The notes under the pieces are model-generated. The model had not been told where the DNA came from and made no database searches. It worked only from the letters and a program-made list of their open reading frames with translations. This document shows positions 3,991 through 39,179 of a stretch of 64,000 nucleotides of DNA, piece by piece. Within the stretch, counting starts at the first letter, position 1. The number at the start of each line of letters is the position of its first letter. The DNA lies in the NCBI GenBank assembly GCA_973895155.1, contig OZ316897.1:19106168-19170167 (forward strand), read 5' to 3'. The position numbers were made by a program, and so were the translations under genes. The DNA comes from Marsupella aquatica (taxonomy: Eukaryota > Plantae > Marchantiophyta).

Positions 3991-5942
3991 TTAACCGATT
4001 CGAGGTTAACAGTAACTTCGACACGACTCTCATGTGGACACAAGACGGGAATTATTCACCGGCAGGAAAAGACCTGGTTAACCAGAATAAAACATGCACA
4101 TCAGTATCCCTCAACACGAGGCTCGTGTAGAATTATTAACGCATACAGGTAGTGGAAGGAAACACAAGGAGGTTTGATGGCTAGGCGAGCCTTGTGTAGA
4201 GCATCAGCTTAGGTCTAAACATCTCCCAAAAGTAACAGAATTATCATAATCATATGCATTTATGACAAAAAGTCCCACAAGAAGTAAGGAAAGGACCCAC
4301 TATTATTCGATGCTTCACTCTAAGAGAGAAGGAAAGTCCAACAAGGTACAAATTCCAACAGGGTAAAAGGACCACCAGTGTACAAATTCCATTAGGTTAC
4401 AAATTCCAACAGGGTACAAATCCCCAATCCATGTAATATCACATTAAAGAACCACCCAACTGATAAATTGTGTTACAATTGAAGTCCAATTCCTCAAGAC
4501 CAAGACATAACCCATGTCAAGACCCTCAATCGTCCTCAATTAAGAAGAAATGAAGTCTAAAATTTCTAAAATTAGGGCAGTTAAGGAAGAAATGAAGTCT
4601 AATTCCTCTTCCCTGGGCCCTCACTCCATGTAAAAGAAGTGGACCCCCTGCAATCAGGCCCTTTTCATGTTTACCCCTTGTTATTTCCATTTTACCATTA
4701 AAAGTTCCCTTATTACTGGTAATAATTATAATTATTAGGTCAAAATGAAGAAAAACTCCCCTTCGAGCGTTCGCACGTCCTCCATGTATTAGTTAAGACT
4801 GAGGGCCCAGGGTTCCTCTTGAAATGCTAAATATCCTATTACACTACCCCTATTTAGTAGAACTTTTGAAAGAAATGAGGTACAGATAATTGTCCTAAAA
4901 AAACATTCTCCAAGAGTGATAGGAATGAGACAGTCACAAGAATGAGACAGTCACAGGAATGGAATTCCAGAAGGGACGTACCGATTGGGCGCCCAGAAGC
5001 AGTCCTTGGACTCAAACCCGTGCTAAAACCTGTCCTCTAAACCACTACAACATATTTTGCCCTTTTGCGAAGCTCATTTGAGTCCGGACACACATTTGCG
5101 ATTCCAGATGCTTCAAACCGTTGATGACTCAATACGCATCGCAATTTGTGATACTTGTGGTATCGCAACTTTGGTCTTCCATGCGATTTGCATCGCAAAC
5201 ATTTTGCGAACTTTATTGTATCACAATAGTTTGCGAAACTACAAAGATTACAAAACATATTACGAAGGCTCCGCGACCGCTCTGAAAGTCCGAAACCACA
5301 GTAACATTAATGATGCAAAACAATTAGTATTGGAGGATGTTTGCGAAAAGGTTAGCTTCAAACAATTTGCGATGAGTTTGTATGGCAAATGTGCGAAACG
5401 ATGTGGATGGTAAAGGTGGGATGGTCTGGATATCGCAAAATAGTGAAGCGTATAGTATGGAATAATTGAGAAACGGTTTAAATGGCAGAATTGCGATTTG
5501 GTTGGGATTTGTTTAGTTTCGCAAACAGTTCGCAAACGTTTATGTTAGACTTGTGTGTGCATCTAGGTTAGAGTTTGAATGGGGGAGGAGGAGGGAGGGA
5601 GGTGAAAGGTGAAAGAGGGAGGAAGGGAGTTGGAAGGTGGATGAGGGACGGAGGAAGAAGGGAGTCCAAAGAGGGTTTACTAAAAATAGGAGAGACTTTA
5701 GCGAAGAGGGAGGGAGGAGAAAAAGCTATGGAGTTTTTGGAAGAGGAAGGAGAGTTTGGGTTCAAAGAGGGAGGAGGGATAAGGGAGGGAGTACCCATGT
5801 CACTTATATGCATGACCTCTTTTGAAAGTAGGAGTCCAAAATGAAAATACCTACCACACTAATGGTGTATGAAATATTAATTAAGAAACAACATGAACAA
5901 TCCATGATATAGATTTTTGGTTTAAATATCCATAAGTGTCTC

Positions 5943-8900
5943 TCACACTTGGTCACCTTCAATGTCCTCTACATCTGACACAAAAATAGTGTCTGGCTTA
6001 TCTGAAACAATGGAACGAGACCGTGGCACATATGTGATGACAAGTGACCACTCTGGGTCTAAGGGGTATGGAACGTAGAAACATTGCTCCAAGTGAGATG
6101 GGAAAGTAAATGGCTCTGACGTTTGCCAATGATATGCTTGAAAACTAGTGGCACTTGTCCTCAACCGTGTAAACCCACTCTCATCTTGGAGTACAGTGCA
6201 ATTATTACCAACAAGGTTCACTTTGAACCACTTGCACTTGAAGACATACTCCTCAAACTTAGATTGGTTGTCATATGAGACCACCAAAATCTCCTCTATC
6301 TTCCCATAGTGTGGCACAACATCACGAACAATGTTCCTGTCATGTCGGCTACTCCGGGAGTCCTGACAAAACTGCCCTTGAACTCCACAATCAAAAGTAC
6401 AAGCCCTCTTCTCATCAAGGGAAGAAATCCTGAAATTAACAAGACCCATATATTGTTATACTACACAAAAAACACTAATCATGTTATGAGGAACCTTTCA
6501 TACCAAAAGAGAAAAACACACTTATCTTAAGTAAAATGATTACTATATCTTAAGTAGTAGTACATGAATATGGAAAATAAGGTTAGGAACTAGTGAAACC
6601 TGAAGTGTCTCCCTTGGGTCCACATGGCCGTCTTGGATGTTACCAAGTCTCTCAAAGGGCCATGAACAATGGTCCGAATGTCATTTGTCATAGTAGGAAA
6701 CTGTGAGACATCTCCTCCTTGTGCCAAAATGCCATCCAACTCAACCAACTTTTCCTTCATAAACTCATGCAACTTAGGAAAAATCCTTGCCCTTTGACTC
6801 ATTCTTTTGGCATTGTCATAAAACTCCCTCCATTCATCCATGACATTGCTATTACTCAACATGAATGTATTCAACTGTGTCCACTCTGTTGATGTAAGCA
6901 TGCGTGTTTTTGTTGCTCCTGTTAAACGGTCCTCCTCCTCTTGCCTCTCCTCCATCCAAGTACGTGGTAAAGTCCGATCAATGGTGGCCAAGATGTTACT
7001 ACAATAAAACATGCTCTCTGCAGCCAAGTATCCTGTAGCTATGCTTCCCTCCACTCGTGCACGGTTACGTACATAAGCCTTCAAGACTGACATGTAACGC
7101 TCAAGCCAGTACATCCATTGACAATGAACTGGACCAGCAATGGCAACCTCCCTCACAAGATGCACAAGTAAATGAACCTGATAATCAAAGAAGGAAAGAG
7201 GGAGGGCCTTCTCCAACTTGCAAACCACCTCAGCAGCCAATACCTCCATTCCAGGAATCTCTTCCACATATATCTCCTTTGAGCATATCCATCTCAACAA
7301 ACGACCCAATGACCAAATGGCATCTTGCACTTCTTTGGTCCCCAACCCTATAATTGCCACTGGCAATATATGCTGCAATAAGCGGTGATAGTCATGTGTC
7401 TTGAGATACCGTGGCCATTTGTGATTGTCCTCCATCCCAAAAGCTTTCCTCAAATTGGCACCATAGCCTGTAGGAAACCGCATCTCCCCTATACGATTCC
7501 GGAATTCACGTCTTTGGCCAACACTAAGCACCCCAAGGAGCAGAAGGACGATGTTCCAAACCTGTGGCAGGATCAACTTGTACCCATACATCTGGATGCA
7601 TTTCCAACTCTTCACATGCCTCCCTGAAGTTAGTGTCCTTCTCCTCATAAAAATGAGCTATCAACGCCTTCCCCACATTTCCCTCTATGTGCATGGGGTC
7701 TAAAAGATGGCGGATCTTCAACTCTGACCAATAGGGCAAACTGGCTAGTATACTCCACCTCGTCAACCCAGTACCATCAAAGGTGAGGGGATTATCAGGG
7801 TCTGCCACCCTATCAGCTAGTGACTTCCAATGCCCAAAAGTTGTTGGTTCCGGAATTTCCCGCATATCACCAAGGGGCATGTCAAAGGAGGAAAATAAAA
7901 GTGGGTCAGACCTCATCTCATGCCCCATCGGAAGAAACTTTGTATGCCCAATGTAAACAATCTTCCTAAGCCATGGGGACCAAATTGCCATATCTTGCAA
8001 TTGTGGACCACAGGTGGAGCAAGCTTTGTACCCCTGAGTTTGCAATCCAGAGACAAAGCCAAACCCTGGTTACACCAAAAATAAAACCAAACTAAATGTT
8101 AGGGTTGTCACATGACAAACAAGTATATTAAAGAGCATATCAAAGAAGGGTGGCATATGGTCAAAAAGTCATCTTACCAGGATAGTCATGCATTGTCCAA
8201 CAAACTACCCCTCTCAATTTAAATACACGTGGAATGTCTCCTGTATTTTTCCTGCCATCATATGCCCACACTCCACCCCACAGTTTTTGGAGTTCTCCAA
8301 TCAATAGTGCCAAATAAGTGTCAAAGTTCTTCACCTTTTTTGGACCTGGAATAATCAAAGACAGCAAGAGGAACCCCTTCTTCATGGATAGCCATGGTGG
8401 AAGGTTGTAATTCATCACAACCACAAGCCAAACTGATGTAGGTCTTCCCTTGCCTCCAAGGGCATGAGGACTAACCCCATCAGATGCCAATCCCAACCTC
8501 ACATGATGAGGATCATGTGCAAAGTCTGGCCATGTTTCCTCAATATGTTTGACTGCAGGAGAGTCAATTGGCAACCGCATAACACCAGGCTCTGATCGAT
8601 GAGTCTTATGCCATACCATCAACTCTGCCAAATCAGAACACCTGTACATGTGCAACAACCGAGGAATGATGGGAAACCAACGAACAGCTTTTCTTGGCAC
8701 CTTCTTTGTAATCATGTTGGGGTCATACCGTGGCTCATGACATTCAGTACACTGTGTCTTCTTCTCATCGGCCCCATGAAATAACATGCAATCATTCACA
8801 CATGCATGAATGATATGATATTTCATGCCAATTGATGAGAGAACACGCTTGGCCTCCTTCCAAGTTCCTGGCAACACATTGCCAAAAGGTAACATAAGGT

Positions 8901-10657
8901 CATGGCAAAGTGCAAACATATCAGATAACAAGGCATTGCTTGCCTTGTGTTTGGCCTGTAGATTCATCAACCCCAAGATAGCAGAGAGATGACTCAAACG
9001 AGCACCCTCATAGATAGGAGTTTGGGCATGTTCCTCTGCTTCCTCCCATTGGCGCTGTCCCTCGGGGGTATGTCTTGGTCGTGGATCATTGGGGGGCACA
9101 TGACCTCTTTGATCAGCAGACACCTCAGCATCATCACCAGGGACGTCAACACCAAACCAATCAACCATAAAATCATCCATGGCTCTATCTTGGTCATCAA
9201 TAACCTGTTCATATGTTCTGGGTACATTGCGATCAGGGTTGTTGCTTCCACTGTCACTTGATGAGGAATGTGACTCAGAGCCTTGTCCTTCTTCCGGCAT
9301 ACCCATTTCCCGATATGCTGCTCTCAATCTCCGCGGTAACATATTTTGAGAGGGTCGCACATTCTAAAAACAATGCAAACAATTGAAAGTTACAAAGCAA
9401 ATAGTTACAACATGTAGAAGAATATATGGGGGTGTGAAAACATGAAATAATATTGGTACTGGTGTAAATACAAAATGTGGCCAAACGCCATGTGTATGGT
9501 CATTTTCTAATCCCACACATAGTGAGTAAACAACTCATCACCTGAGTGAATGGTCCTAGTAGCTACAACCAGACAATGGTCATGATGATATGTCTGGCCA
9601 TAAGGGGCTGGTGGAGGACCCTCAATGAAAACCCACTCACAATTTTGCCTACGCTTGGGGCGAGTCCCCACAGTACTGTTTATGAAACCAGCTATATTCC
9701 CAGTTCATATGGGGTCCCCATCTATCACCCGCTGCTCACTATACCTCCTAGTGTTTCCATCAAAAGTATCTAACTCCAAGGCATAAGTCTTCCACTCAGG
9801 ATGTTGTGCAAGGATCATGTTCCAATGTCTTCTCTTGTAGATGGGTCCACCATAAGGAAACAACGTAGGTCCTTCTCGACCGCGTCCACCACTACCACTC
9901 TCGGTATCCACAATGATGTCTTCACAAGCAAAAACTCCATAGCCATGTCTATCCCCAAGTGTGGAAGGTTTGATAACCCAACGTCTTCCCCAAACCTCTA
10001 CCTCCTCACCATAGGAAAGCTCTTGTGGCAAACCAAGAGTTTGGGGATCCCAGTCCTTGATGATAGGAACACATCTGCCAGTAAACTCACAATCACCCCA
10101 CCTACCGGTAACCACTGCCTTGTACAAATCAGTATCCCCTCGGGGCCGTCTCTTGGAACGCTTTCTCCCTCTTGGGACAACAGGCTCACCCCCAACTGCC
10201 CTAGGACTGGAGGGGGCTGTTGCTAGACCCAAGGCTTGTGAGAATGCATTGCCTATAGCATCTAGAACACCTTGTGATGGGACATAAGGTGCTGATGCCG
10301 CAGGTCTAGGCCTACTAGATACCTATTCCACCCAAACCAAAACAAACAACAAGAGGTGTGAAATTAAAAACCTTCACCATTGCGATGTGGAAATAGGGTA
10401 GAAACTAAGGCGTAAACACTTACCACATGGGATGAGGAAGCCCCTATTGTATGACATCCGTAACGTCCATATCTCTCAATATGCTGGGTGCATATATAGG
10501 ACTTTTGGGAAACCTGACCCACGCATTTGGCACATTGGCAAAGCTGACGGGGTGGACCACGAGGAGGAGGTGCAGTCGTGTGAGGTTGAGGAGGAGGTGG
10601 TATATCTTCATCGGAGGAGGAAGAATCTGTGGTGGAGATCTCAGAAGATGAAGACAT
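5943..10657 (-). pseudogene. TnpD/Tnp2-family CACTA transposase (transposase-associated Zn domain, Tnp2, DUF4218- and DUF4216-like regions)
   Basis: Motifs IHACVNDC, WFPIIPRL, VRLGLASDG, YNLPPW, TMHDYPG, LDPMHIEGN, KTHDYH, HLLVHL, WMYWLERY, YGKIEEI and FKCKWF. GT-AG introns. Frameshift near 7530. Confidence 0.93.
9507..10322 (-). pseudogene. SET-domain exon inside CACTA-1 (one premature TGA at 9705-9707)
   Basis: HGYGVFA, YGG, IDGDPI*TGNIAGFINS, NC and VATRTIHSGDELFTHY give the SET motif order. 816-nt phase-0 exon after an AG acceptor. Confidence 0.8.
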
Positions 10658-11049
10658 TGCCCCTACAAAGATGTATAATTTGCAAGTTAGGGGTTATTAC
10701 CAAATAACATCACAATATCAAGCTGGACAAATGTAAGTTCTCAAGTAATGATGACATGAAACCAAACACAAAAGGAACACTAAAAAATACCTTTCTGAGA
10801 CCCAGGCTCAGTGGTGCCAATAGGTCTTGTGGCTCTAAAATAATGAACCGAATCTGGAAGTATGAGAAAAGCTGCAAGTACACAAAGCGAACACCTTACA
10901 TACATGTCCTCTTTATAGATAGTGGGAACCAAAAATTTTAATTACATGAATAAGCCTAACTAGACCCATCTATTTTAGTCCGTACCTCCAGATGCCCGGG
11001 CTCATACGATGCATACGCATTAGCTAGTATCAATTCATGCAAAAGTGCT

Positions 11050-11560
11050 GCACCCTGCAAGTTGTCATAGCTCCTCCTCCTTTGTTAGCATAAAACCCAT
11101 GGAAAAACCATTAAACCCCAAAAGATCCATAAAACCCATTAAAACCCATAAAACCCATGGTAAAACAACTAAAGCATTAATCTCATCTAACCTTGCTTTG
11201 CCTTTTCCAAACCCTCACCCCCAAACCTCTGACCTATTACAAAAACCTAGACCCTCACTCCCAATCCCCTTCCTCTCTTTTGTTTTAAACCCTAAACCCT
11301 TGCTTGAACCCTAAAAGCCTACAACCATAAATGCAAACCCTGCTTAAACCCAAAATTAAAGACTTAAACCCTAAACCCAAACCCAACTTTAATCCTAAAC
11401 CCTTTCCTCACTTATTAATTTTAAACCAAAACCCAACTCTTATCAAAATTAGCCTACACCCACACCATGTATAGCTTAAAAAATGGAAGGTTTGACTGGT
11501 AATCTCGCTTTTAACCCCTAAAAAAACCAGCTTCATCCAAGACCCAACCCTAACAAACGC
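11050..11560. repeat. AAACCC(T/A)-rich tract, telo-box-like, between the divergent CACTA-1 genes
   Basis: Several AAACCCTAA, AAACCCAT and AAACCCAA copies. Confidence 0.5.
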
Positions 11561-12023
11561 CGGGATTTGAAACGGCGGAATTTCTTAATTACACAAAAGG
11601 GCATAGTATAACTTACATGGCCTAAACAAAAGGAGGAGGGAAAGAATGTGAAAAAAAAATTCGCCAGGAATTGCCACGATATTGAGAACCGACCTGCTTC
11701 GCAACCTGCTTCAGAATTTGGTCACATTATTTGCGAAGCAAAATGTTTCGCAACAGCTTCGGAAAAACAGAGCCCGAGAGCATTTTTTCGCGTCTCTGCA
11801 GCTTTGCGAAGGCTTTGCAAAGCATGTGGTTTCGCATTGGTTTTGGAAAGTTGAGATACTAGTTGCGAAGCGGGCTGATTCACAAATTGCGATGCGGACT
11901 GCGTCGCAAATGTGTTTTGTCTGGGCATTCGGACCTTCCCGCCGGGTTACGAGGCCCATTCGACGTTTTTTGAAGTGAGGGAGGGCAGGAGGAGAGCTTG
12001 CGCGCGCTTGGTGTTGGATAGCT

Positions 12024-14070
12024 ATGGATTCTAGTGGAGGGCGTGGAGGGGATGGGGCAGGGGCAAGTGGGAGTGGGAGTGGCAATGGCAATGGAGGGAA
12101 CAGGAATGAGGAGAGTAATCAATGGACGAATTTGATGGCCGAGCATCTCAATGCCACACAGCTGAGCCATTTGGATTTGAGTACACCAGTTGGGATTGCT
12201 TCTTTGAGTGCAATTCTAGGGCAAGCTTTGCAAACCGGGGTTGCAGTAGGGCAGGCTTAGAGGGAGAAAGAGGCAAAGGCTGCAGCTGAGGAGAAGGCCA
12301 GAGAGAAGAAACGAAAGAAGGAGGAGAGGGCTAAGGCAGGAGTACTCTCTCCTGCAGCCCTCGAAAAGAAGAGGAGAAGGGAGGAACGAGATGAGATTCG
12401 AGCACAACGTGAGGCGCAGCGGAAAAAGGAGGAAGAGAGGAAGAAGCTGCCATTGATTGCCTTGGTTGAGGGCATTCCTACTGAGTTGGCCTACACTGGG
12501 GCAAAGAGCACTATCAAGCTTGCTGTGAGGACTAGCTTTGCACGAGGTGTTGAGTGGGGGAAACTAAGCAGAGCAGAGCAGAGGAAAGTAATGACTCAGG
12601 TCAAAGATTCATTCAGAAATGGAGCAGAGATTGATGACCAGTGGCTTGCAGATAGAATTTTGAATTCAATGTCTCAAGCACGATACCATGATAGGAGGAA
12701 GGTGAGGGCCTACCTGGCAAGCTTGCAGGAGTACAAGAATGTGAGGAGGCCAGTGCAATTCACAGAGGATGTGTGGAACGTGTTCTATAAGGTCGAGGTG
12801 CAGCTGAAAGCAGCCAAGGACCTCCAATTCTGGAAGGAGAAGGAGGCCAAGGCACTTCAGGCCGGGAAGTCAGACAAAGACCTCAAGGCATTGGCTGAGA
12901 AGGTCTCTCAGCTGCAGCACATCGTGGATGAAGTGGGGACACCACCCTAGAAGTTCATCCTTGCAGCAGACCGAGTCAGCAAACGCCCCAAGACCACACA
13001 CAAGATGGGGCAAGGTGGACTTCCCGGCCTGAAAGCAACCTTCGTGAGTCCTCTCCCCTCCTCCCCTACTTCTTTTCCTTCGCCTTCAATAGTTGTTTGC
13101 TTGCCTGCAATGCCCCTCGCAGACCTCTGCTTTACCCCTTATGGCCTCCCCTTTCGTTTTAGGTCACCCTGACACATTGCGTGCCTTAGCCATTTCTCGG
13201 ATTTTTTTAAAAGCACAGTTTGCGAAACAATTGCGAAGCGGGTTGCCTCACAATTGTTTCGCAAACTCTATTATAACCTTTTTCCCGTAAGGTTTGCAAA
13301 GCCATTGCAAAGCAATCCGATTCGCAGTCTATTTTGCAAACTTAAATATATTTGAATTTGCGAAGGTGGGAGTTTCGCAAAGCTTGTTTCATTTTGAAAA
13401 ATGTTTAGTGTCGAGTGACAAATGTTTGTTAGGGTAATGGGGTTTTTTTCTGGTTAGGGTACCCTTTTTACCCTTTTTAGGATTCCTTTTTTGCTTAAGT
13501 ACCCTTAGTTACTAACCCGGGCCCCTTATGTTTTGGTGTTTCATTTTTTTGTGGTAGTATAAGAGGTACCGCCACAAGATAACAACAAAGGAGATGGAGA
13601 TAGGAGCAGAGCATGGGGCCAGACATCTCTTTGAGTTGGTTGATGCAGAGTTGGCTAGTGTGAGTGATTTGTAGTACCCTTTCTAAACCCGCACTCATTC
13701 CATTTATAAGGTTTATACATTTTTCCTATTAACCCTAAACCCGAATTAACCTTGTGACATGGAAGCAGGATAAGGAGTAGGAGGGGAGTGAGGATAGCAG
13801 TGAGGAGGGTAGCGGCGCTGATGATGGGGACACTACCGGGGCCACCACGAGTGGGTCCAGAGGGGCAGGGAGTGCTGCCACACCTAGCACACCAGGAGAC
13901 CAGGAGGATGATGATGAGGATGATGACGATGATGAGGATGAGCCAGATGGGGAGGAGCAACAGGCACCACCACCACCGCCACCACCACCACCACCCCCCT
14001 CCCGTCCAGCTCGTCCCGCCCAAAGCAAGAAGGACAAGGGGAAGAGGCCAGCAAAGAGGAGTAGGCGGGC
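12024..14070 (+). pseudogene. TnpA-like (Ptta/En/Spm, Transposase_24-like) gene of CACTA-1, divergent from TnpD
   Basis: Spliced ORF containing ...VEWGKL...RRPVQFTEDVWNVF...THKMGQGG and an acidic, Pro-rich last exon. In-frame TAG stops at 12258 and 12948. Confidence 0.6.
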
Positions 14071-17000
14071 TCCATTCTAGAGGATGCAGATGTAGTTCAC
14101 TCCATATGGCATATGGATTAGTCAAAGGACAGTGTCTTGGTATTTGATACCCCATAGGGTTTTAGAAAACCCTAATTTTTGTACATTCAGGGATTTTTGG
14201 CATATATAAAGTTTTGCTTTGGTATCTTCATGTGGAGCAATAAGACCCCAACCCAATTATGAACCCAAATATACAAAACCCAGCCCTCAAACTATCCTTG
14301 CGAAACACATGCGAACGCCATACTATCGCAAACTTGTCATACATTGAGTATTGGAACATTGCGATACTTTTGGTTCCGCAATTGTGCGACACCCTGATTG
14401 ACGCAGTTATGCGATACCATATGAATGGCAACGGAATTGTCAAGACAACAGCTTCGCAAATAAGTTATAGTTCAGAGCGTGTCGCAAACCGATAAAGAGT
14501 CTGTCGAGATCGCATAAATGTGATTTATGTGCGATAAAATAAGTTTTGTAGTGTGCGAAGGTGTTGCGAAGGGGTTGCGAAAGTCCGATTGCGAAGCTGT
14601 GGGTTTCAAAGAATGCGAAAGGGTTGCGATGCATAGCGTTTCGCAAACGCCGGAATTTCATAATTTGGTCCTTTGTTAGTTGCGATGGGACGGGGTTCGC
14701 AAAAGGGGTCGGTAGTGTTGTAGTGAACCACCCGTGCCAGAACTTATCCTCGGTGAGAGAATCAGGACGACTAATCGATAAATACCATTCCCAGATAGAA
14801 ATCCCAAATATAATGGACAAAAATGATAGGGTGATCACTCTGCTAGATCGTTGTGTGGTCCAATTTTCCGATATTTTGGCGGTGCAATTAATCATGTCAG
14901 ATAATGACAATAGATAATGACAAAAGAATAAGCACATCTGCTTGAATGTGACAGGCTGATAGCTTTGCATGATTGTCGTCTGGTAAGATTCGTCGATATT
15001 TTTGGCGGCGCTCTTAATGATGTCTTCACGCTTCACGCTGGCCCATTTTCACGCTTGCCCATTCCTCGTGTCAGTTATATATTTCAAGGAGATTCGCTCA
15101 TTCACTCATTCCTTCATCTTTGCCCTCTCGCTCATTCTTCGCCCTTTTGCTCATTCATCTCTCCCTTTGAGTTCTGCTCAATTACGTCCATATTTTGCAA
15201 ATTGTTTCACACGTGCGAAGAGGTTTCATGGCGAATCTATCTGAATCGGAGGTCCGAGAGATGTCGGTAATATGTGCCCCAACTTTAGAAGATGGTAGTC
15301 AAGCGGGCAAAGTCCATTTTGGTCGAATGAGTTGTTTTCTGGACGAATTGTCCATTTTTGTGAATAATAAAATCTCGGCATTTGTTTTGACATCTTGGAC
15401 TCTATTCTAAATCTTCCGTATTGGTTCTTTCCTAGGATTCCCGTATGTTTGTTTCAGCCACCCGCGCCTACCGCAGCCGCTAAGTCGAAGCACTGTTAGC
15501 CACCAAAATCCAATCGTCAATTCATGGTCTTTTGAAATGCGTATGGAGGGTGACGCTTGGAGGTGTTGGTTGTAGGGGATCGTTATTGCCAAGCCCAAAA
15601 GGTTTTGGAAGTACTTGGGTGTGCTTGCCGATTGTAGGATTTCAAAAGCACCAGAGCACCAGAAGGGGAAGGTCTTTCTGACAGTGACGGTGGAGGACCG
15701 TGTTAATTGTGGATATAGAGAGTTCTCTCTTGCCGTTGAACAATATTGTTGCGCACATTGTCTTGAGCCAAATGATGCGACAATGAACATAACGTCCTTA
15801 GGATTTTTTGATCCATCCACTCAACATTTCATGGATCCAGATAATGTTCTCACTACTGAGGATATTGTTTTAGGGCTGGGAAGGGTTAGTTTTTTGTTCT
15901 TCAAAGATTATCAATCTCACCTTTCTGCAACCAGGCATGTTGTTTACGTCATGTCTCTATCTTTACTGGAAGATGAACCCCGACAGGAGATCGAGATCGT
16001 TCTGGAAATTTCTTTCCCAGATCCTGTTGACGAGGAAAGGATTAAACGTTGGGTTGCAACCCATGCTGTAGTGAAGGCCTTCAATTTGAATCAGAAAAGG
16101 CACGGACGTCATGGTGGTGGCCCAAATCTCAAAGCAAGCAAAGTTGTACAGGAACCTGGATTGTCGTCGAGTTCAGATTCAGGATCATCAAGTTCATAGG
16201 GTACATCAGATGAACCAAGCATTGTTCCTAGTGACTCTTTTAGTCCTGAGTTGGTTGGAACAGAGGAGATCTTTGAAGATGAGATCCAAGTCGTGGATGA
16301 AGAACTCGTGGAAGTGGGAGGTTCAGAGGCTGAAGAGGAAAAGGACTCTAAGACTGAGATGGAGGTGTAGAAGAAAAAGAAAAGAAAGCGAATGGAAGAA
16401 GACGCTCCTTCCAAGAAGAAGAGATTGTCTTCAAAGATTGCTCTTCCAGAGAAGGTTGGGAAAGCTAATGTCCCTCAGGAAAAAATCCGCACTAGCTCTA
16501 CTGAGGTGAAAGGGCCACAGATTGCAAAGTCCAAACAACCACAGAAGAAGATTAAAGCGGCCGAAATACCATAACAGAAGAAGGCTATCAGGAAGAAGGC
16601 AAGCAGGCAGTTGTGGAAGATATAGCAAAACCCATATCAAAAGGTGTCGTTAAGAAGGATTTATCTTGTAAGGCTTCTATTGCAACACCTTCCGCTGTCG
16701 TGAAACAAAAGGTGCCCTCAAAATCTCAAAAGGTCAATACTCAAGTGCAAGACGTATCCACAGACCATGGGGTGACAAGATCGGAGAAGTCCAAACGTGG
16801 AAGGGGCCGCAAAAGAGACACTGAGGGAATGGAAGAGGCACCGGAAACCGATGTCCCAATCCTGAAGAAACAACGTAAGAAAGTGGAGATGATTGAGATG
16901 GATATCGTGGATGACATGGGAGAGATGAATGTTGACTCGAGTTCTAAAGTAATCGTTGATCAAGCCAGACTTGAGAGGGAAGAAAAGACTTTGCAGCAAA

Positions 17001-18349
17001 ACCATTGCTGGTATTCTTTTGGGCTGTATATCTATCCTCCGCCGGCAAAAATGAATGAGCGGTTACTCAACGAAGACCATGTCAACCATCTTGTTCAGTT
17101 GATGATTTTAAATGTCGGTCAGGAACCTTTGCCTGCAGATCTGGTGCCTTACAAGATGATTAATGGTGTTTACAGTCTTATCGATCTTTCCGTCAGAGAT
17201 TTTGATTCTAAACAATTATCTGAGTATCAATATTGTGCAATAAGTGGTCAACACTCGACTATGGCCACGAGGAAAATCATTTGGAGTTCTCGGACACAGC
17301 CATCTCTGGTTAAAACTGCCAACCTCCTAAAATTCCGTCGTGCAAGAATTCTCAAGGGGTCGACACCTGTTAAGGTGTTGGTTGAGATTTCACATGCAAA
17401 CAACTTGCAAGCTGAAGCACATCGTTTCTCGTCACCATTCATCGACCAGGTCAAGCATGCGAGAATGCAATATTCGGAAATGAATCAACCAGTGCGGCCA
17501 GTGCCGTCAGGGCAAAAATCCCAGGAATTCCAGGTCCGTTCTTGTTGACACCATAATTTCTTTTGTGGTCCACACAAGCCTCGTGTAGAATCCGAGGCTT
17601 GGATCTAAGATAACTTCTCCAAAGGTTTGGTTTACTGTGTTGTTCTTACCGTTTGTTGTTGGGTTTCAGGATTACGAAGGGTTGGCCAAAGTCACACTGA
17701 AAGTGAGTAGCATCAGCGAATACAACTGGATCCTTTTCATATTGGAGAGCCTCTATAAGTTGTGGATGTCGGTCTGCAATAGTTAGTTGTCTGGTAGTTT
17801 ACCTGACACCAATGGAGAGATGACTGGGAAGAAGAGGGAAGCAAAGCAGCTTACTGGGACGACATTCAGGGTATTTGAGAGGGTGCAAGAATCTGACATT
17901 ACCTCTATCTTGAATAAAGTTCAACCGGAAGAGGTTCTCTTGATGAAGAGAAGACATGCAAGGACAAATATACCTTCAATGTCCGATCTTGCCATGAAAG
18001 CCAAGTATACTGAAAAGCTGAAAGGTGCAATCTTGCGGTTCTACCGCGAGACCTATGAAAGTGTTTTCAATGTTGGGGCCGTTTGGTCGGACGTGGGCCG
18101 CGAGTTTAATTTCATGAATGAAGAATTGGATCAATGTTGCTCAATGGTCGACAATGCTTATTTCAAGAGTTTAGTCAAGGTCTCTACAAAATCCGATATG
18201 CCGGAACCTTTGAAGAATAGGTTACGGTGTCGTGATTTTCTCTTAAGTTATAAAAAATTGTTTGTTTTAATATGCTATAAATTATAAAGTAATTTAGTAG
18301 TTAGATTATTAAATTTAGACTTTATTCAACTTCTTTAGCTATATTAACG

Positions 18350-18545
18350 GACTATAGTAGTTCCACCAATGCATATGAGTAGTTCCACCAACTACAATAA
18401 TATTCACCAACGCACAGTAGGTCCACCAGCGCATAGTAGGTCCACCAATGCACAGTAGGTCCACCAACGCATAGTAGTTCCACCAACGCATAGTAGTTCC
18501 ACCAACGCATGGTAGTTCCACCTACTAAAAGTAGTTTCACCAACT
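18350..18545. repeat. ~20-bp tandem repeat (TAGTAGTTCCACCAACGCA) in the LTR U3 region
   Basis: About 9 degenerate copies visible. Confidence 0.9.
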
Positions 18546-18995
18546 ATGAACAGTACTAGCACACTCTTAGGTATTAGATGTTTGACACTTGGCCTTCATC
18601 CAAGTGCTTGGGCTTGATCCATGCCCTCTTGGTGTGCACTATAAATAAAATGGTGAGGGGCACTCTCCCCTCATTCCGCAGTGTTTATCATTCAAGGTTG
18701 TGAAGCTCTTTTGTGCCTTGAACATAGTAGTGGGGCATCCTTTGGCCCGGATAGCAAAGGAATAGGAGAGCCATCATGAAATCAGGAGAGAGAGTTATCC
18801 TTGATCTTCCCCTTCGTAATCCGTTTTTGATTAGAGTCCATCTTTTAGACAAACCATCTATGAGATAACATCTAACCTATCATTTTGGAGCTCAGTTTGC
18901 AACTGCTGTTATGGTTTCTAACGAGCCAATAATATACCCAGTGATGTCGTACCGAGAGGAGTGGGAGTGCATCATCTTTATCCTTTATTGAAGTC

Positions 18996-19202
18996 ATGGA
19001 TCTGAATAGGAGTCCGAATGATATTCCTGTTTCATTTTCTCTTGGAGATATTAGGATCATATGTCGTAAGAAATCTAATTTTTGTGATGTGTTGGTCCGC
19101 AAGTATGGTGAAGTAGGGTTTAACAGTATTTTAGTTTCACTTGAACCTTTCTTAATACCCACTACCTTTGTTACTAGAATTATCATTTTGATTTTAGTGT
19201 AG
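18996..19202 (+). CDS. LTR-borne small ORF B copy (ORF A in this copy has a premature TAA)
   Basis: MDLNRSPNDIPVSF... is open. The upstream ORF A (ATG at 18776) has AGG CAA changed to AGA TAA. Confidence 0.5.
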   Translation: MDLNRSPNDIPVSFSLGDIRIICRKKSNFCDVLVRKYGEVGFNSILVSLEPFLIPTTFVTRIIILILV

Positions 19203-20426
19203 AACTTATAAGCATGCAAGGTTAACTTCAAAAGAGCCAACATGCTCTTGCCAGAAAACACGGTCACCCGGACAACGGAATATTTACCAAAAAAAATTTG
19301 AGGAAACTGTCCGTGAGAGAATGGATCCATATTGAATATTTTACTCTGGGAATCTTCTTGCTTCCGCGGAGCCTCCTTTTGATTTGACGAGTTGTAGGGA
19401 GAGGATTAATGTGTCACTTGCTATTGTCGATATGACACACTCAATTCAAAATACCTGGACACAATCGGAGCTGCTGAATTTCTTGAAGACTGTTGTGAAT
19501 GTGCCCGCCAACGACTTGGTGACTGTCGTGTTTTTTGTGCACCCAGGTCTCTTGCTGGCCAGAATTATTGAAGCTGTCACTGATCTACCTTCCAGTTATA
19601 ATGCTCATCTGGAGTATGGAAGCTATTGGAAGAGTGCGAAAGAAGTCCGCTCATCGCATTTCATGTCGGGTATTATTGAGTCCATTGTTTTCCTTGGAGT
19701 CTCCCAGGAACAAGAACCGGATTGGGAAAAACATTCAAGAGGGTTTCAAGGTCATTTCTTGGCAAAATCCATGGATCAGCTTGAACTGGCAAGACCAGCC
19801 AAAGAAGATTATGCTGGCCTTTCCAAGGAAGAGGTTGCAGCAAAGCAAAAATCCGCTCTTGGAGATCGCTTGTATAGACTCATTCCTTTCCGGAACCCCG
19901 GTGGCAGAACATTTACATCAAACATTAAGCCCAGCAGAATTATCAAGGCAATCATTCTTTGATTTTCCGAAAAGGAGGAAATTATGTTGGACTTCTTTAC
20001 TGGTGGGCAAGTTTTAAAGAATGCCCTACTTCTGGAAAGGGAATGTTTCTCGTTTTGTTCGGAAAGGGGGGATGTGATGGACCTCACGGCTTATGCGGAG
20101 AATGTCAAGTCGTTGGAGGGTGTCGCACAATTTGTGAAATCCTTATGGAAACTTCCACGAGGGGAGGGCAGCTCAACGCAAAACTCTAATGCAAGTGGCG
20201 CAAAGGAAGGGAGGCACTATCATGTCACTGGAACAGTCTCCCATCAAGACGATAACAGATTTTCTGATCCTTGTGTTGGAATGATTAATGTTGGGGAACA
20301 GATTTGCCGTCCATGGGAATTGGGTGAGGCGCAAAGACCGATCCACCACTTAGGGAGTTTCGAAGGACCTCTTGTGGAGGAAGAACACAATGACGATCTC
20401 GGGGGTTAACTTAGTGTATATTTTGG

Positions 20427-20655
20427 GGCACCACGTGCGATCCTAACCTAATATAAACACACCTCTTTTATTATGGGAATATTCTAAAAATATTCTCTAT
20501 TTTTAATACAAATGACCTATTTTACTTTATAAAAGGTATATATTAGAGAATATTCTACAAATATAGGTTTATAATCCCTTCTTTTGCTTTCTATGCTTTT
20601 TAAAAATTTAGCTAATTTATATGAAAAATACCTATTTTGGATCGCACGTGGTTCC
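20427..20655. mobile_element. MITE (Tourist/PIF-Harbinger-like)
   Basis: 17-bp inverted ends GGCACCACGTGCGATCC / GGATCGCACGTGGTTCC with one mismatch, a very AT-rich interior, and TAA on the right flank. The left boundary/TSD is not clean. Confidence 0.7.
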
Positions 20656-20921
20656 TAAGATTGTTGATAGTCAACCCCCCAAGATGATGATGGGATACCT
20701 CTATCTCTACGCGAGCCTCGTGTGGGGTCGTTTGGCGAGGTGGACTCAATTATAAATGATATTGCACCGGTTGTGTCTGAGGATCCTTCCGATTACCTTC
20801 GGGTTATCACTGGAGTTCAAGAGGCCGTTAACATCGTCAATCCATCCCTCCCCATACTTGGGCAGAAAATCAGGGTCCATGCGAGGTCGAGCCCGTCATC
20901 GAACATGTCAATAATGTTGTC

Positions 20922-21679
20922 GTGGAACTTGCAGTGGAGCCTGCGAATGAGGCAGGTGCCAATTCACTCTTTCCCACTTCTCTCAACCTGAACGATGATG
21001 TGGCGATAGACTTTTGCCTCAACCCTGACATGGATCTTAACATGGATCAGGATTTAGTTTTGTCAACAATCAGTGGATGCGTCATAACTTGTCGCGAGAT
21101 GGCATGTCTAGGTCCTGAGCGATGGATAACTTCTAAAATTATGAATGCTTATTTTGGTTTGATTGCTTCAAGAGCAGAATCCGCGGGTACCGACCTCCCG
21201 CAGGTTCATATTTTTGATACTTGGTTCTATTCGGAACTTGCTCGAGGTGGATACAAGTATGACGATGTTCAAACTTGGACCTCAAAGTTGGAGTACTTTT
21301 AACTGATGTAGAGATGGTCATGGTCCCTATTCATAAGGGACATAACCATTGGGCACTGGTCATCATCGACATGGGTCTTAGGAAATTGGACTATTTGGAT
21401 TCTTTGCACGGAGATAACCCTGAAGTTCTTGAGAACCTAGCAAGATATCTAGATGATGAAGCCATGTTCAGAACTCATAAGGAACTGAATGCTTTGTCAT
21501 GGCCAAGAAACTGTTGTAAAGACATCCCTCTTCAAACCAATGACTACAACTGTGGAGTGTTTGTCATGAAATTTGTCGATTACCGGAGTAGGGAGAAGCC
21601 TATTTATTTCAAAGCCGAGGACATGGATGTTGAAAGGAGGAATATTCTTCTAAGCCTTTATCGTCACCATTTGAGTTAG
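20922..21679 (+). pseudogene. Ulp1/SENP-family (peptidase C48) protease domain
   Basis: WITSKIMNAY, HIFDTWFY, VPIH..HNHWAL, YLDSL and LQTNDYNCGVF retain the His-Asp-Gln-Cys catalytic residues. One frameshift near 21295. Confidence 0.9.
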
Positions 21680-21790
21680 ATCTCCGTGATTCTCGTGTGG
21701 AATAGGTTATCGTCAGACTTCCATACGCTGCAATGCATCGTAATTGATGTTACGCTCTTGCATTGACTTTATGATATTGATGTTCATTTA

Positions 21791-22857
21791 TTGTTTGGTC
21801 ACTCTATAGATATTGTAACATACGATATGGCAACTATTATACAAAACATCATTCCTCGTAAACTGCTCATACTTGACATGAATGTCGTCTTACATATTGT
21901 GCAAATATCGGGAGTGCGAGCAAAGTCTCTTAGGGATATAAATACTGAAAACGGGGAGACATTGTTTCTAAATAATAGAATCATCTATGTAAGACCGGGA
22001 ATGCGGCACTTCGTTGAATGGTGTCTTCAGACATTTGATGTGGGGATATGGGCCTCTGCCGTATATCGTAATGTGCATGAGATTTTGGAGAAAGTGTTTC
22101 CCAACGAGAAGCATCAATTTGTCTTTGTGAGAACTGAAGCGGAAGCCTTGTCGACTAGGATATTTTATGGGGCTGGAAGAAACAAAGGGAAAAATTGCTT
22201 TGTGAAATTACTGAAAAATATTTGGGATGACCTCGTTTTATATGGAGATCGGACAAGTGCACCTTATAATGACAGCAACACCATCCTTCTTGATGATTTA
22301 CCTCATAGAAGTTTCTTTAACCCCGAATACTCGACGTTGTTTTGTGATTGCTTCAACGGCAATAATAATGGTTTCCTTGCAGATACGTTTATAAGCAACA
22401 AACTTCTGAAACCAGTGTTGCAGGAGTTGGCCTTGGCAAGAGATGTGCGTGTGTATTGTGGCGAAACACTCCAAAATGGTCCAGTCTGAATTTAGCTGAA
22501 GACCGAAAACAGTATCAATAGATATACACTCAACTGCAGGGGTTTGGGGAATCTAATTCGCTTTTTGCGTCGTGGCCAGTGTGCAAATATGATGTTCTCC
22601 AACTGACAACTTCAAAACTTACACCTCGGCACATAGAGATCATATTGTGGATGTCTCGTAAGGAAAACTTCACTGAGCATGAAACTAATCAATGTACAAA
22701 AGTCCTAGGAGCTGCGCATGGGCTATTCGCCACAAATTTTAGGGAGTTTGTGAAAGTAGTCAGCGAAGTTCACAGACAAACGTCAAAATTCTGTAGAATA
22801 AACACAGGAGTAAAGAGTAGGCAGGACTTAGTACTTCAGATTATGGATAGAATTTAG
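21791..22857 (+). pseudogene. NIF/FCP1-homology (HAD-like) domain protein (copy 1)
   Basis: KLLILDMN, YVRPG...F...C...FDVGIW, K.L..IWD and NTILLDD.P...F.NP. A premature TGA at 22487 precedes a C-terminal extension. Confidence 0.8.
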
Positions 22858-29199: not shown

Positions 29200-30383
29200 A
29201 AATTTACAATGTCCTTCTTCTATCTAAGGGGCTTAACGTGAGTCAAATCTCTAAACAAAGTGCTCCTTACAATGTGTATTTGAGCACGTGCCCCTGTCTC
29301 CTTTACTATCTACCCTAGTGTCACGGTTGCAAGTCCCTTTATCTTTAGGGAGCTAAAACTTGGTGGTGTTGTTCCTAATGGCTATAATCTCCCGCAAAAA
29401 GTGTCTGGGATTTTCTCTATGTGGACCTGAATAGTCCCTTCCTACAAATGCTTTAGCAAGTGACGTGACAAGTGCATCATCAAGTTCTGTCTCAGGACGT
29501 AAACTACATATATGATGCTTCACGTTCCAAGGAATCTCATTGCTATTGAGGTCCAACACACTATGCGTAAACTGTGACTTCCAAATTTTTGTTGCACAAC
29601 TCTTACTAAGTTGATCATAAGTAATTTTATTTTTTACCTTGTCTCTCTTTATGTGCAATAGAGACCACAGTGGAGAGTTAAGAAGAAGATAACATCTAAT
29701 GTCACTTGCATGGGATAGTTTCTCAAGACAAGGCCAAAGAATTGTTAGAAGAAAATTATCTCCACCATTGGCATGCGTGTGGGGCACTGGAAATAGTCCG
29801 GTCATGCTTGGGTTGGCAAATGCCTTAAGGGGGGAGTCATCCACAAGGAGGGTGTTGGTTTCATCATATAGATTTCCAAATCCACTCCATACCACCCAAA
29901 AATCCTTCAGTAGCACATTTGCCTTTCCGTTTGTAATGTCACGCCTTTGAATGCCTGTGTCAAAGGCTTCCACCTATGTGCATACAAACTTAAGTTTCAA
30001 CTGCTCCTCAGCAGTGAACATCATGTTCAGCATTTTCACTGTTTGATGTACCCCAGCACATGTCCAAATTGCAATGTCAAATCAGTCAAAAACCAACTTT
30101 AGAAACTCATGGAGCCCTGGCCTTTCTGTGTACATGCGACTAATTCCATTTTTCTATCCCAATGCACTCCACTTGGGGTCACAACATTTCTGGATTTGCC
30201 CTTGCTTTGGAATTCAACTGAATCCCAAAGTATTTTGTTAAGATCCAAAATCAACAATTTGCGCTTGATGGAACAAGGTCTTGGTTCTGCAAGTGCAACA
30301 AATACCAATCTTAGAGAAAAAACCACATTTGAAGTTTGGATATAGATCATCTCTGTCAACCCAACACAAGTGGCCAACCACAA
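29200..30383 (-). pseudogene. NIF/FCP1-homology domain protein (copy 2)
   Basis: KLLILDLNKIL, LKDFWVVW and YDETNTLLVDDSPLKAFANP. Frameshifts and stops. Same position downstream of the MTase gene as in copy 1. Confidence 0.8.
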
Positions 30384-32946
30384 AGAAAATATATTTGCAT
30401 ACTGATCGTATTCATTGAGAAACCGTAAAGAGGAGATGGATATTGATACTGATGCTCTAATTGTTAAACTTGAAGTATAATTATACAGACTATATTATAT
30501 CAAATTGATAAGGTCACATCGCTCAATCTAGACCTTGGCTAACAATGCGATCCATATTCATCAATCAAGATATCATCACCGAGCTCTTGTTGGATCTCAT
30601 AATTGACATCGGAGGTACTCTCCTCTATCCAATAAGGTGCAGACCAAACCGGAGTTATCAATCCCAATTCTCCACTTCTATAAGTTGGATCTTTCTTGTG
30701 CTTTTTGTACAAGTCATTGTTCAAAATTGATTGAGCAGCATCCAATGCAACTTCAGTTCCTACATCGGGTCCACTTTTCCACACGTAACATCGACAATCA
30801 TATTCAAGTGACTTATATCCAGTTGATCCTACTCTCTTCCCTTTCTTTTTTGAGAGTGGAAGGATAACGGGACTTCTTGATTGTGATCGAACAAACACCA
30901 ATTTGTCATCAGAGGCGGAAAAGAGTGTATCGGGATAAATTGAAGCACCTGCCTGGTTGTCAGCAGTCGTGGATGCACTTGCTTCATTCACGGGAATGTC
31001 AGCTATTTGGATGGGCTGCGGTCTCAATCCCAATGTGTCGAGTTCATTGGACTCACCATGCCTCTCCGCACCTTGATTGAGAAGGTTGTTTGAAGACAGT
31101 TTTTCAAACGTATCAACTTCCATCTCTTGTCCAGGCAATTGTGGATGGAGACCATCTCTATCCAAGTTATCATCATACTGGCCCTCGTTGGGTCCCATGG
31201 GGGCAACATCTGTAATTGGTGAACTGCAAGATGCAGATCCAACAATCATGTCGTCTTCCACAAGGTCAATATTTTCACCCTCGCCAACTCGGTCATCCAA
31301 ATTCTTCACATATGCCTCCTCCGATGGCCCATCGTCTTTGACTGATTGGTCAGCTCCATCTTCTTGATCACCATCTGATTCATCGTCAATAGCAAGAGTG
31401 GCAGAAAAGGGTTCCCAATGTCTAGAACTTCCACCGACATAGCGATCATAACGATCTTTGATGGTGGGAACCTTCTCACAAAGGAATGAAGCATATGCTT
31501 CCACAAATTAAATGTCTCTCATGTTGAGAGTCACAATAAACAAAACATTCACGTTGAGAAAAAAGGGATGCCTTCATCACTTGACCACCAGAGAAAAAGT
31601 CAAGAATCAAATCCCCCGGCTCGGACAGTGTTTGGATGATCTTTTGGATCATCCATGTGGGTTTGGCGTGAGGATTCACCCACCCATCCCGAGCGCTGAC
31701 CGTCTCAAATTGAGGTGCCATGTGTAGAAGTATTGCCGCCTCTGCTGGGATCATCATATTTCTTGGATCTTCATGTAATGACTCCTCGTCCGCGTCCTTT
31801 GCCTTTCCCTTTCCCTTGACCTTCTCAACCACAAAATCAGTATCCTTTTCACCGTACACCCATTTTGGCTTCATCTGGTTGGGCTTGAACACTTCATCCC
31901 AGCTGACGTTCTCTTCGCGAGAAATTCCCGCAAAGATAACTTCTTCTATTCCTCCCTTCCAACATGAGTCGTGAGGGTGAGGTTGATCATCTCAGTAATA
32001 ACTCCCATACTCAATGTGAATAGTGAGAGTTTTTGAATGTCCTAATTTATGAAGAGCGCTTAGGACATTCAATACAAGGTAACCCAGATGGACAGTTATC
32101 ATCACAACAATGGTGGGATTCCGTGGTAGCTCTACTATGTATTGGAAGAGTACCAAAATCTCTGCTTCGGTCCACTCCTTCTGTTGAAGTCGGCTGAAAT
32201 CAACAATTGCAAGAGGGCATGTTGGAGATTGTTCTTCCAACGACTCCGGATCCACTGTCTTCATTAGGTTGTTACTAAAAAATGTGACCCATGGTTGGGT
32301 CCGAGAACTTGTCCCCCCGCCAAACTTCTGACAGTAAATATCATCTAGACGCATCACCAATGTCATTGGTAATATCTCACTCTCTTTGTATGATTAGACT
32401 TCAATAAATTTGTCAACCATACTTCACCAGCCGCTCTTTGGCACCTGTTCAACTCCGACTCGGCACCTAACAATGGGAGGACCTCAATTACTTTAACCCA
32501 ATCACTATCTATTGGGAAGTTTTTTGGATCCTTCTCAAAGTAGTAATCTCCAATAAGAGACTTCAGTTTGATCAATATCTTCACCTCCTTTGCAAAGTCC
32601 TCCATTGCTGGAACATCTGACTTATTTGTTGGATCCTTCTTCAATAAAACCTGACCTGACTTCACCTTGTTCAAAATTCTGGTCAAATCTCTACTTGAGA
32701 TTTCACCATCAAAACAATGAAACATTGCGACCGTTATACCCTTTTCGGACCTTTTGTTTCCCTGTGTACCAGCTCCATCAGGAAGATGTCCATCAATCCA
32801 CATCTGGCACACTAACTGCCAGAGCTCGAAAAGATTATTCTCGGCAAAAAGCAACCAATATACATTTTTCAAGTCTTTTCTCCCCATGGTCATCCTTGCC
32901 AATGCCAAATAATCCTACAGTCAAAATTAGGGGAAAATAGGTTATC

Positions 32947-33081
32947 TGTTATACCCTAACTAGGATTAGATATCTTAACCCGAGTTAAGATCTAACCAAG
33001 ATCTAACTCAACTACCTCATGTATATATATTGGACACATGAATAAGATTCATTACATTGTTGGAGCATATGGTTTGTAACA
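32947..33081 (+). repeat. 5' LTR
   Basis: TGTTATACCC...TGTAACA, identical to 39180-39314. Confidence 0.98.
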
Positions 33082-33095
33082 CGTTATCAGCACGA
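33082..33095 (+). promoter_or_regulatory. Primer-binding site (half-tRNA type, complementary to the tRNA-Ile anticodon arm)
   Basis: CGTTATCAGCACGA directly after the LTR, with no TGG start. Confidence 0.7.
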
Positions 33096-34208
33096 ATGCA
33101 AATTTTTTTTCCCACGAAGAGGTGCTAAACCATAAGGGGAGATCCGAAGAGTTTTTCCCAAAAGATGAGCACTTTTGGCCACATTTGAGGGCCATTTCTC
33201 GATAGAAACCTCGAGTAGAATGACATGGGCCTCGGTTCGTCTATGGCTTGAGAACGATAGACCACCATCTAGAGATCTTGTGAGCGAGCGAGCAATAGGT
33301 AAACAGTAGGAACATAGAGACAGAACGAAAAAAGAAACACGTAGGGCCAGCCGCAGTCTAAATCCGAAGGAATTGAAACGAAAGGAAATCGGCAGAAGAG
33401 TAGAACTTCTTGAAACCCACAGTAACTCAAGACAAATCCCGCAGACGACGCATAGCACACACGAAGGAACGATAGCGCCAATTCAGCACGAAGACCAAGC
33501 CCCGGACAAAGCCACGAGGCGCCGTTCCGCAGATAGCACCACACAATCCAGACACAATTCAGACACAATTCGACGCTCGCCGCCTGTAGCCACTGAATTC
33601 ACAATTCGACGCTTCGCCGCCTGTAGCCACTGAATTCACTGACTCCCGGACCACTGACTCCCGGACCCACACTTGAGACAGCGCAGCGTTGAAACAAGAC
33701 GAAACGAAACAGAAGATCGATAAGGACTTCATCGGCACACCATCCCTCACCAAATTGAAACCACCCGTATAGGGACCCTGACTGAAGTCAAAGCGGATCG
33801 ATCCCACACAAGAAGAGCAGAATAAAGAAATACACAGAAATTGCAGAGAAGACTCCGAGAGATAAAACGCGAACACAGAAGAGTCCCAGGCAAATTAACA
33901 CACTAAAGAGAGCCGAGCAGCACCATCCATAGAGAACGAGTGAAAGACCAAGCACACCATAGCGAAGAGAGCAAACGCGAGCCCCAGACCAAAAACGTAC
34001 AAGCAAGGGCAGCGACCCCCAATTCTCCTTTCCACCCACCTAAGAAGGAAGAATCCAATCATACCGGGACCAAACCTGAAGAATAGCGAATACCAAAAGA
34101 AAGGAGCAAGCGAAGCTGATCCACCACAAAATAATAGCTAAGTGCAAAAACTCCATTGAACCCTCCTTAATTGCATACATTTACAAGGTGAACCCATATT
34201 AGCCCAAG

Positions 34209-38812: not shown

Positions 38813-39179
38813 CTACTTACTATGAAGAAGCAAACCATCAATACTACCACAAAGGAGATCAAGACATTCTCAAGAACATCAATAACTCACATACACTACA
38901 ATGAAGACAATGGAGACAACAACCCCTATGGAGCTTAACAACATAGAAAACACAATTAAACCAGTATTGTACTCTAGATCTTACATACATACAAAATAGA
39001 TCATACAAAAGAGATGGAAGGTGACAATACTCTTTCCTTCCATGATGTTAGTAGGGAAGGTTTTAATGAGGTTGCACCTCCATCATCTCACAATATAACA
39101 TAGGTAGAAGATATCTAACTGATAGCAACTTAGATTGGTTGTTATAATTTCATCAAAAACTATAACACCCAAGGGGGAG

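Follow-up and report, generated by a model that had tools for sequence, protein, structure and literature searches.

A SET-domain exon in the transposase gene of CACTA transposons from the liverwort Marsupella aquatica, predicted to be spliced as an alternative to the transposase exon

The window, a 64,000-nucleotide stretch of contig OZ316897.1 of Marsupella aquatica (assembly GCA_973895155.1, positions 19,106,168 to 19,170,167), contains two related CACTA transposons, both on the minus strand. CACTA-1 is a complete element of 9,683 bp (5043-14725), with a perfect 10-bp terminal inverted repeat (TIR), CACTACAACA, at both ends and a 3-bp AAC target-site duplication (5040-5042 and 14726-14728). 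Its right end was found through homology to the TIR of a metagenome locus (L007), and the TIR pair has 11/14 matches. The element shows CACTA-starting TIRs, a 3-bp target-site duplication, a TnpD transposase and subterminal TTGCGA repeats, in line with the definition of the CACTA/EnSpm superfamily (PMC4158355). The body of TnpD is encoded, on the minus strand, by exon 2 (8178-9363), which follows a phase-0 AG acceptor, begins with NVRPSQNMLPRRLR and holds the start of Tnp2 (PF02992), by exon 3 (6600-8065), with DUF4218 and one frameshift near 7530, and by the last exon (5943-6429), with DUF4216. In copy 1, PF02992, PF13960 and PF13952 all score above cut-off, and in copy 2 PF02992 does so. Intron positions in TnpD vary among close relatives: the last intron of copy 1 (6430-6599) is absent from copy 2, and the related locus L013 has an intron (L013:2591-2778) that is absent from copy 1.

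Upstream lies a second, divergently oriented gene, ORF2 (12024-14080, plus strand), with a main frame at 12024-12950 and a further acidic and proline-rich frame at approximately 13780-14080. It carries a premature TAG at 12258-12260. Ten of 34 related loci contain frames with 47-66% identity to ORF2. It has no informative match in Pfam, PDB or Atlas, and its structure model is of low confidence (pLDDT 59.5). The hexamer TTGCGA occurs 39 times in CACTA-1, compared with 10 times in the 48,866 bp outside both elements. One cluster (11699-11904) is found between the two divergent genes, two are at the ends of the element (5065-5530 and 14298-14697), and one is in the ORF2 region (13220-13375). Locus L023 has the same four-cluster layout. 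In the VANDAL elements of Arabidopsis, short motifs are likewise clustered in internal non-coding regions.

CACTA-2 (41537-46986, minus strand) has its left end, CACTACTACATATT, at 41537, and its right end is not within the window. Its 5' part was severed by the end of a nested CACTA element at 46987, inside the predicted 5' UTR. The TnpD exons of this copy (42295-45552, minus strand) are broken by several frameshifts and stops, and its SET exon is open. CACTA-1 has three lesions, namely the stops in the SET exon and in ORF2, and the TnpD frameshift. Both copies in the window are now decayed.

The nested element, CACTA-3 (46987 to beyond ~62000, minus strand), belongs to a second CACTA lineage and apparently sits in the 5' UTR of copy 2. 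Its TnpD (56536-52733) has an unsplit start with the Zn motif, and an upstream frame (58736-57906) matches an NSD-type PHD finger (PF22908, E 2.6e-9), a possible transposon-borne chromatin reader. The right end of CACTA-3 was not found in the window. A tandem array at 62017-64000, whose ~408-bp units contain palindromes and ATGAC repeats and which is inverted relative to the repeats at 47312-47577, is probably its far subterminal region. At 48147-49781 there is a non-autonomous CACTA element, with the TIR CACTAGTACAT, a CTC duplication, 24-bp subterminal repeats and a short transposase remnant in reverse orientation (49091-49180). Elsewhere in the window, two diverged copies of a multi-gene unit (16556-22536, plus strand; 41183-29608, minus strand) share ~28-47% identity in their longer blocks. 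The unit includes an N6/N4 DNA methylase fragment (31476-31991; PF01555, E 2e-6), a NIF phosphatase (21767-22489; 29353-29973) and an SGQH motif reminiscent of ParB. In content it is similar to the cargo of red-algal Plavaka elements, which also includes ParB and a methylase, and no transposase or ends could be assigned to it. A Copia LTR retrotransposon (32947-39319), whose LTR ends are 98.6% identical, is inserted in the minus-strand copy.

In both CACTA-1 and CACTA-2, the transposase gene opens with a 234-nt coding exon 1 (10424-10657 and 46631-46864, minus strand), which runs from an ATG to a phase-0 donor, GTAAGT in copy 1 and GTGAGT in copy 2. In copy 1 it encodes 78 aa, a Ser/Pro-rich start followed by C-x-C-x2-C ... 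H ... YGR. In copy 2, an AG stands immediately 5' of the ATG. A 5'-UTR intron is predicted from the sequence alone (AAAG/GTATTT ... TAG; 10663-10790 in copy 1 and 46966-46865 in copy 2, minus strand). The next exon, of 816 nt in both copies (9507-10322 and 45703-46518, minus strand), is preceded by TAG, ends on a TAG stop and has 271 codons, covering a helix, a basic linker, a pre-SET extension and a SET domain. The transposase (Tnp) exon then starts at 9363 in copy 1 and at 45552 in copy 2, each time after a TAG and with a phase-0 acceptor. We propose that the SET exon, lying between exon 1 with its Zn motif and the rest of the transposase gene, is part of one pre-mRNA with two splice forms. 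Joining exon 1 to the SET exon would give a 349-aa Zn-SET protein ending there, and skipping the SET exon would give the normal TnpD transposase.

The coordinates, exon lengths and splice dinucleotides of a preliminary description of this DNA proved exact in both copies. It had also stated that exon lengths and splice sites were kept in spite of diverged introns, and this was borne out. CACTA-1 and CACTA-2 are ~74% identical over 4.1 kb, whereas neither intron 1 (101 and 112 nt in copies 1 and 2) nor the post-SET spacer (143 and 150 nt) reaches an alignment score above the maximum from 200 shuffles (31 versus 49, and 58 versus 63, respectively). The common exon lengths and splice sites are thus not a trivial carry-over. 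The SET exon had been said to have its own stop. Its terminal TAG is present in both copies, but an in-frame TGA in copy 1 (9707-9705), 5' of motif III, had been overlooked, and because of it copy 1 is unable to make a full SET domain. At position 9707, four public runs have an Arg codon in their entire depth (2194/2194, 25780/25780, 55444/55444 and 9096/9096), which indicates that the TGA is a decay mutation private to copy 1 and that the exon of the family is intact. In copy 2, the exon is fully open (271 aa). As for the Zn domain ascribed to exon 1, the motif is present, but it represents the ordinary transposase-associated N-terminus of CACTA elements, and not a separate acquisition. PF13963 matches it weakly in copy 2 (E 0.009) and not in copy 1. 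In CACTA-3, C-x-C-x2-C...H..YGRY stands in one frame with Tnp2, with a pairwise E of 2e-6 to exon 1 and a PF13963 E of 1.2e-4.

The proposed SET identity of the exon was upheld by the profile search. PF00856 scores 25.8 and 26.8 bits in the two copies, above its gathering score of 22.4, and the fold model agrees. This model, built on 71 sequences, has a mean pLDDT of 84 and, as a Foldseek query, matches SETD8, LegAS4 and MLL1 with a probability of 1.0. The structural match to SETD8 reaches Z 11.6 (rmsd 2.9, 129 residues aligned), and the best Z overall is 12.2. In a wide structural search, yeast Set1, PRC2, SETD8, SET7/9 and NSD2 lie within 1 Z unit of one another (Z 11-12) at 16-22% identity, therefore no KMT subfamily can be named among those considered (SETD8, Set1/MLL, E(z), SUVH, NSD, PRDM). 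Particular to the family are a SET-I insert and a pre-SET extension. A K/R-rich basic linker is present in both copies, and there is no reader domain.

Conserved residues in the alignment are G128 and G130 (66/71 each), G159 (68/71), Y162 (70/71), N215 (63/71), N227 (70/70), E263 (62/64) and the catalytic Y268 (58/63). The GxG, the Asn, the Glu-Leu and the catalytic Tyr are retained in sequences down to ~25% identity. In the canonical SET motif III, a His follows the Asn, and this position is a Ser in 68 of the 71 sequences. The SET proteins of the window end three residues past Tyr268 and have no post-SET segment, the part that closes the cofactor pocket in active SET enzymes. Among solved structures, the best profile match was LegAS4 (E 7e-5 with the wide alignment; Z 10.9, 26% identity), and a profile from the narrow alignment had no match among solved sequences. 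The Legionella protein RomA/LegAS4 is also without the motif-III His, having a Phe there, yet it is an active H3K14 methyltransferase. It differs in being a bacterial effector, whose isolated SET domain binds SAM poorly and which requires its ankyrin repeats for good SAM binding and for activity (PMC10653858, where the roles of the GxG and Tyr in SET enzymes are also described). In the window proteins, this function may have to be taken over by a partner, a dimer or the well modelled pre-SET segment (residues 69-111). The similarity to LegAS4 is too low to imply a common origin or the same target lysine. The Zn-SET protein is probably an active SAM-dependent lysine methyltransferase.

A sequence search with the SET exon returned 40 clusters at 90% identity and 89 at 50%. 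Named members come from Sphagnum (one cluster, with 360 sequences), Calypogeia fissa and Riccia sorocarpa, the closest named protein being from Calypogeia (72% identity to copy 1). Among 34 metagenome loci, exon 1 was found in 19, the Tnp exon in 20, and both around the SET exon in 9, most of the remaining loci ending too early or being incomplete. All but one of these loci (33/34) appear to form a single tight family (pS 0.06 in a comparison of 11) and are therefore not independent. The order of exon 1, SET and transposase is also seen in Sphagnum-like loci and agrees with gene models from Calypogeia and Riccia. In distant Riccia models, the Zn motif precedes SET (P0081, P0112, P0124) or TnpD follows it (P0113, P0149). 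A 423-aa protein from a Logan contig (P0089) has the Zn motif and SET in one frame, maybe as a spliced transcript or from an intron-free lineage.

Pattern matches in viral contigs (49) and in prokaryotic genomes (35) included no relative. Structural matches in viruses were generic (7-21% identity), and a giant-virus cluster in the Atlas, at 0.96, is a lead only. A phylogeny with 51 rows and no outgroup resolves several deep lineages among the sequences from Calypogeia and Riccia, but names no donor. The identity of ~62% between Sphagnum and Calypogeia, together with a dS of ~1.0-1.2 to the loci, hints at horizontal transfer. The family also appears in published gene counts, to which it is linked by one member id that matches one of our search matches. 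In two Sphagnum species, orthogroup OG_7564 numbers 90 and 44 genes (PMC9946827 Table S5). It has 2 genes in Pseudotsuga and 0 in the other 33 species, zeros that are limited by repeat filters in the annotation (PMC9946827). The two Pseudotsuga genes could reflect contamination or an occurrence in conifers. This "expanded gene family" in two Sphagnum annotations is likely transposon cargo.

Between copy 1 and copy 2, the SET core and the Tnp exon both have a dN/dS of 0.22 (pN/pS 95% interval for the SET core, 0.22-0.41), and in comparison with four metagenome loci it ranges from 0.17 to 0.24. Neutral evolution of the exon, a concern from the start, is thus not what we see: the SET exon is under purifying selection equal to that on the transposase exon. 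Within the family, 11 close locus copies have a pN/pS of 0.89, pointing to near-neutral decay, and stops are present in 7 of 14 locus copies. Low dN/dS between the window copies combined with near-neutral close copies suggests a cargo selected during transposition, and not a host gene. The same pN/pS and stops, and the position of the exon between TIRs, led us to reject a domesticated host gene.

How are the two downstream exons translated? The first Met of the SET exon is residue 142 in copy 2 and ~169 in copy 1, in each case after the GxG, so that in the window copies this exon needs an upstream coding exon. In Sphagnum-type copies, the fourth codon of the SET exon is an ATG, which many models use as their start. 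In the Tnp exon, codons 1-7, located 5' of the first Met, differ between copies 1 and 2 by four base changes and no residue change, including a TCT/AGT Ser. Codon 8 is TTG in copy 2, and Met in copy 1 and in 8/8 loci compared. Proteins found with exon 1 run on into the SET exon in 11 of 14 cases (Calypogeia, Sphagnum). Among the 34 metagenome loci, the GT donor is kept in 17/17 testable cases, the in-frame AG acceptor of the SET exon in 22/25, the SET stop in 21/22 and the AG acceptor of the Tnp exon in 18/19, an acceptor being also present in L006. The lack of a conserved usable start in either downstream exon, together with the match of exon 1 to the N-terminus of an unsplit transposase, argues strongly for alternative splicing. 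It is also the simplest reading, because the SET and Tnp exons are under equal selection and both need one upstream coding exon. In view of the sequences, both splice products are very probably made. For the earlier claim that exon 1 is spliced to either exon, layout and start codons are strong but indirect evidence, and gene models joining exon 1 directly to the Tnp exon number 0/14, and 0/2 in a second set. Contigs from four runs, of uncertain kind, cover the introns, and none of the joints listed for them (15 of 51 for copy 2, 6/6 for copy 1) matches a predicted intron, which is uninformative on expression. One Sphagnum member of the family was nearly silent in 8 treatments, with a value of 0.069 and then zeros (PMC9946827 Table S6).

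Alternatively, exon 1 could serve the SET exon only, with TnpD starting at a Met inside the Tnp exon, either by re-initiation or on a transcript with a separate promoter. All exon-1 gene models enter the SET exon or read into the intron, Met8 is widely kept and two ORF calls begin at Met20, as would be expected in this case. Nevertheless, the conservation of codons 1-7 as protein, the retained AG acceptor, the TTG at codon 8 of copy 2 and the presence of the exon-1 motif at the N-terminus of the unsplit TnpD of CACTA-3 make such a start very unlikely. A three-part Zn-SET-transposase fusion, similar to SETMAR, would require splicing from a donor close to where the SET exon ends. SET sequence is indeed joined to the Tnp exon in models from Sphagnum (P0027, P0056, P0074) and Riccia (P0113, P0149), and P0113 retains the C-terminal SET motifs through the catalytic Tyr. 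The donor, however, differs in each model, and most have a shortened SET. The SET stop is kept in nearly all loci, and there is no strong common phase-0 donor: the four phase-0 GT sites inside the SET exon that are common to five sequences all score <=3/6 on a simple donor consensus, on which the exon-1 donors score 5/6. We regard this fusion as extremely improbable.

With alternative splicing as the preferred reading, the Zn-SET protein would act as a SAM-dependent lysine methyltransferase. Our tentative suggestion is that the basic linker brings it into the nucleus, where it would methylate histone tails on or close to copies of its family, easing their silencing. Both the histone substrate and the self-targeting are conjecture, resting on the basic linker and the motif clusters. 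The N-terminal domain in common with the transposase would recruit Zn-SET to a TnpD/ORF2 complex on the four TTGCGA clusters, and the splice ratio would couple the dose of the regulator to that of the transposase. Catalytically inactive SET domains exist, and the exon could instead encode a pseudo-enzyme or decoy, with a dead SET fold that attaches to histone tails or to Polycomb/SUVH partners of the host. The short Zn-SET isoform could also pair with TnpD as a dominant negative. The Ser in motif III, the missing post-SET segment and the transposase N-terminus of the isoform would all suit such a role. On the other hand, the GxG, Asn, Glu-Leu and catalytic Tyr persist in the most distant sequences, and LegAS4 is active with the same His missing, so a dead enzyme seems quite unlikely. 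A third reading keeps the splicing and the active enzyme, and replaces the histone with another substrate, either the element's own TnpD/ORF2 or a host silencing factor, thereby tuning transposition. It would agree with the tie among histone-KMT subfamilies, with the family-specific SET-I insert and pre-SET extension, and with the lack of a reader domain. The K/R-rich linker in both copies speaks against it, and published transposon-borne SETs are called histone methyltransferases (PMC12730594). We consider a non-histone substrate rather unlikely. Taken as a whole, an alternatively spliced, likely active methyltransferase, which is recruited through its transposase-type N-terminus and aids the element against silencing, is the account that we favor with some reservation.

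Parts of this arrangement have precedents. In maize En/Spm and in Arabidopsis EN/SPM3 and EN/SPM7, alternative splicing of one gene yields both TnpA and TnpD (PMC13547354). The elements described here belong to the same CACTA superfamily and are likewise predicted to make two proteins from one alternatively spliced unit. Unlike in En/Spm, the alternative product is a SET protein with coding exon 1 of the transposase, its exon is nested before the transposase body, and the putative ORF2-type gene stands apart and is divergently oriented. The red-algal Plavaka elements are also EnSpm-superfamily transposons with a PF00856 SET, which in their case belongs to an accessory gene of its own, PAG2, together with a PF01555 methylase domain, and these elements measure 17-19 kb (bioRxiv 10.1101/2025.02.11.637652). 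Here, by contrast, a lone SET exon lies inside the TnpD unit of a canonical 9.7-kb element. The SET exon matches PF00856 only, and no other frame in the 64-kb window matches the SET profile. The HarbingerS and MuDR families in Phytophthora and SET-carrying Helitrons are further DNA transposons with SET cargo, but they belong to other superfamilies and hosts, and these accounts of them describe no exon in common with the transposase (PMC12730594; bioRxiv 10.1101/2025.02.11.637652). Arabidopsis VANDAL elements offer a parallel in VANC, an accessory protein proposed to act on the chromatin of its own element (PMC12730594; bioRxiv 10.1101/2025.02.11.637652). According to the latter source, no transposon other than VANDAL is known to bind its own sequence and modify it, and none of the accounts consulted gives an assay of a transposon-borne SET. 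It differs from our elements in belonging to the MuDR superfamily, in that VANC is not a SET protein, and in that its activity has been demonstrated, whereas self-action is a prediction here. Our literature search, which did not extend to Repbase Reports, subscription journals or bioRxiv supplements, found no SET terminal exon sharing exon 1 of the transposase in a bryophyte or other land-plant CACTA element. Judging by the sources cited, SET cargo in transposons, including the EnSpm lineage, is already published, and what appears new is the shared-exon form in land plants.

The most far-reaching version of our proposal is that a clade of moss and liverwort transposons has kept its own histone KMT, of unclassified lineage, as a splice isoform of the transposase, tethered through the N-terminal transposase domain to motif clusters at the ends and promoters of the element and writing an anti-silencing mark there. 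We think it less likely than not that this holds in full. Bryophytes mark many of their transposons with H3K27me3 (bioRxiv 10.1101/2022.10.24.513474), therefore the target mark of the SET protein would be informative. The writing of histone marks by a transposon is directly testable here, as the putative enzyme is small, encoded by a single exon and present in high copy number, in tractable plants and with intact natural copies. If true, these elements would encode their own chromatin writer, with a dose set by a splice switch, a possible route for a transposon to edit the very chromatin that silences it.
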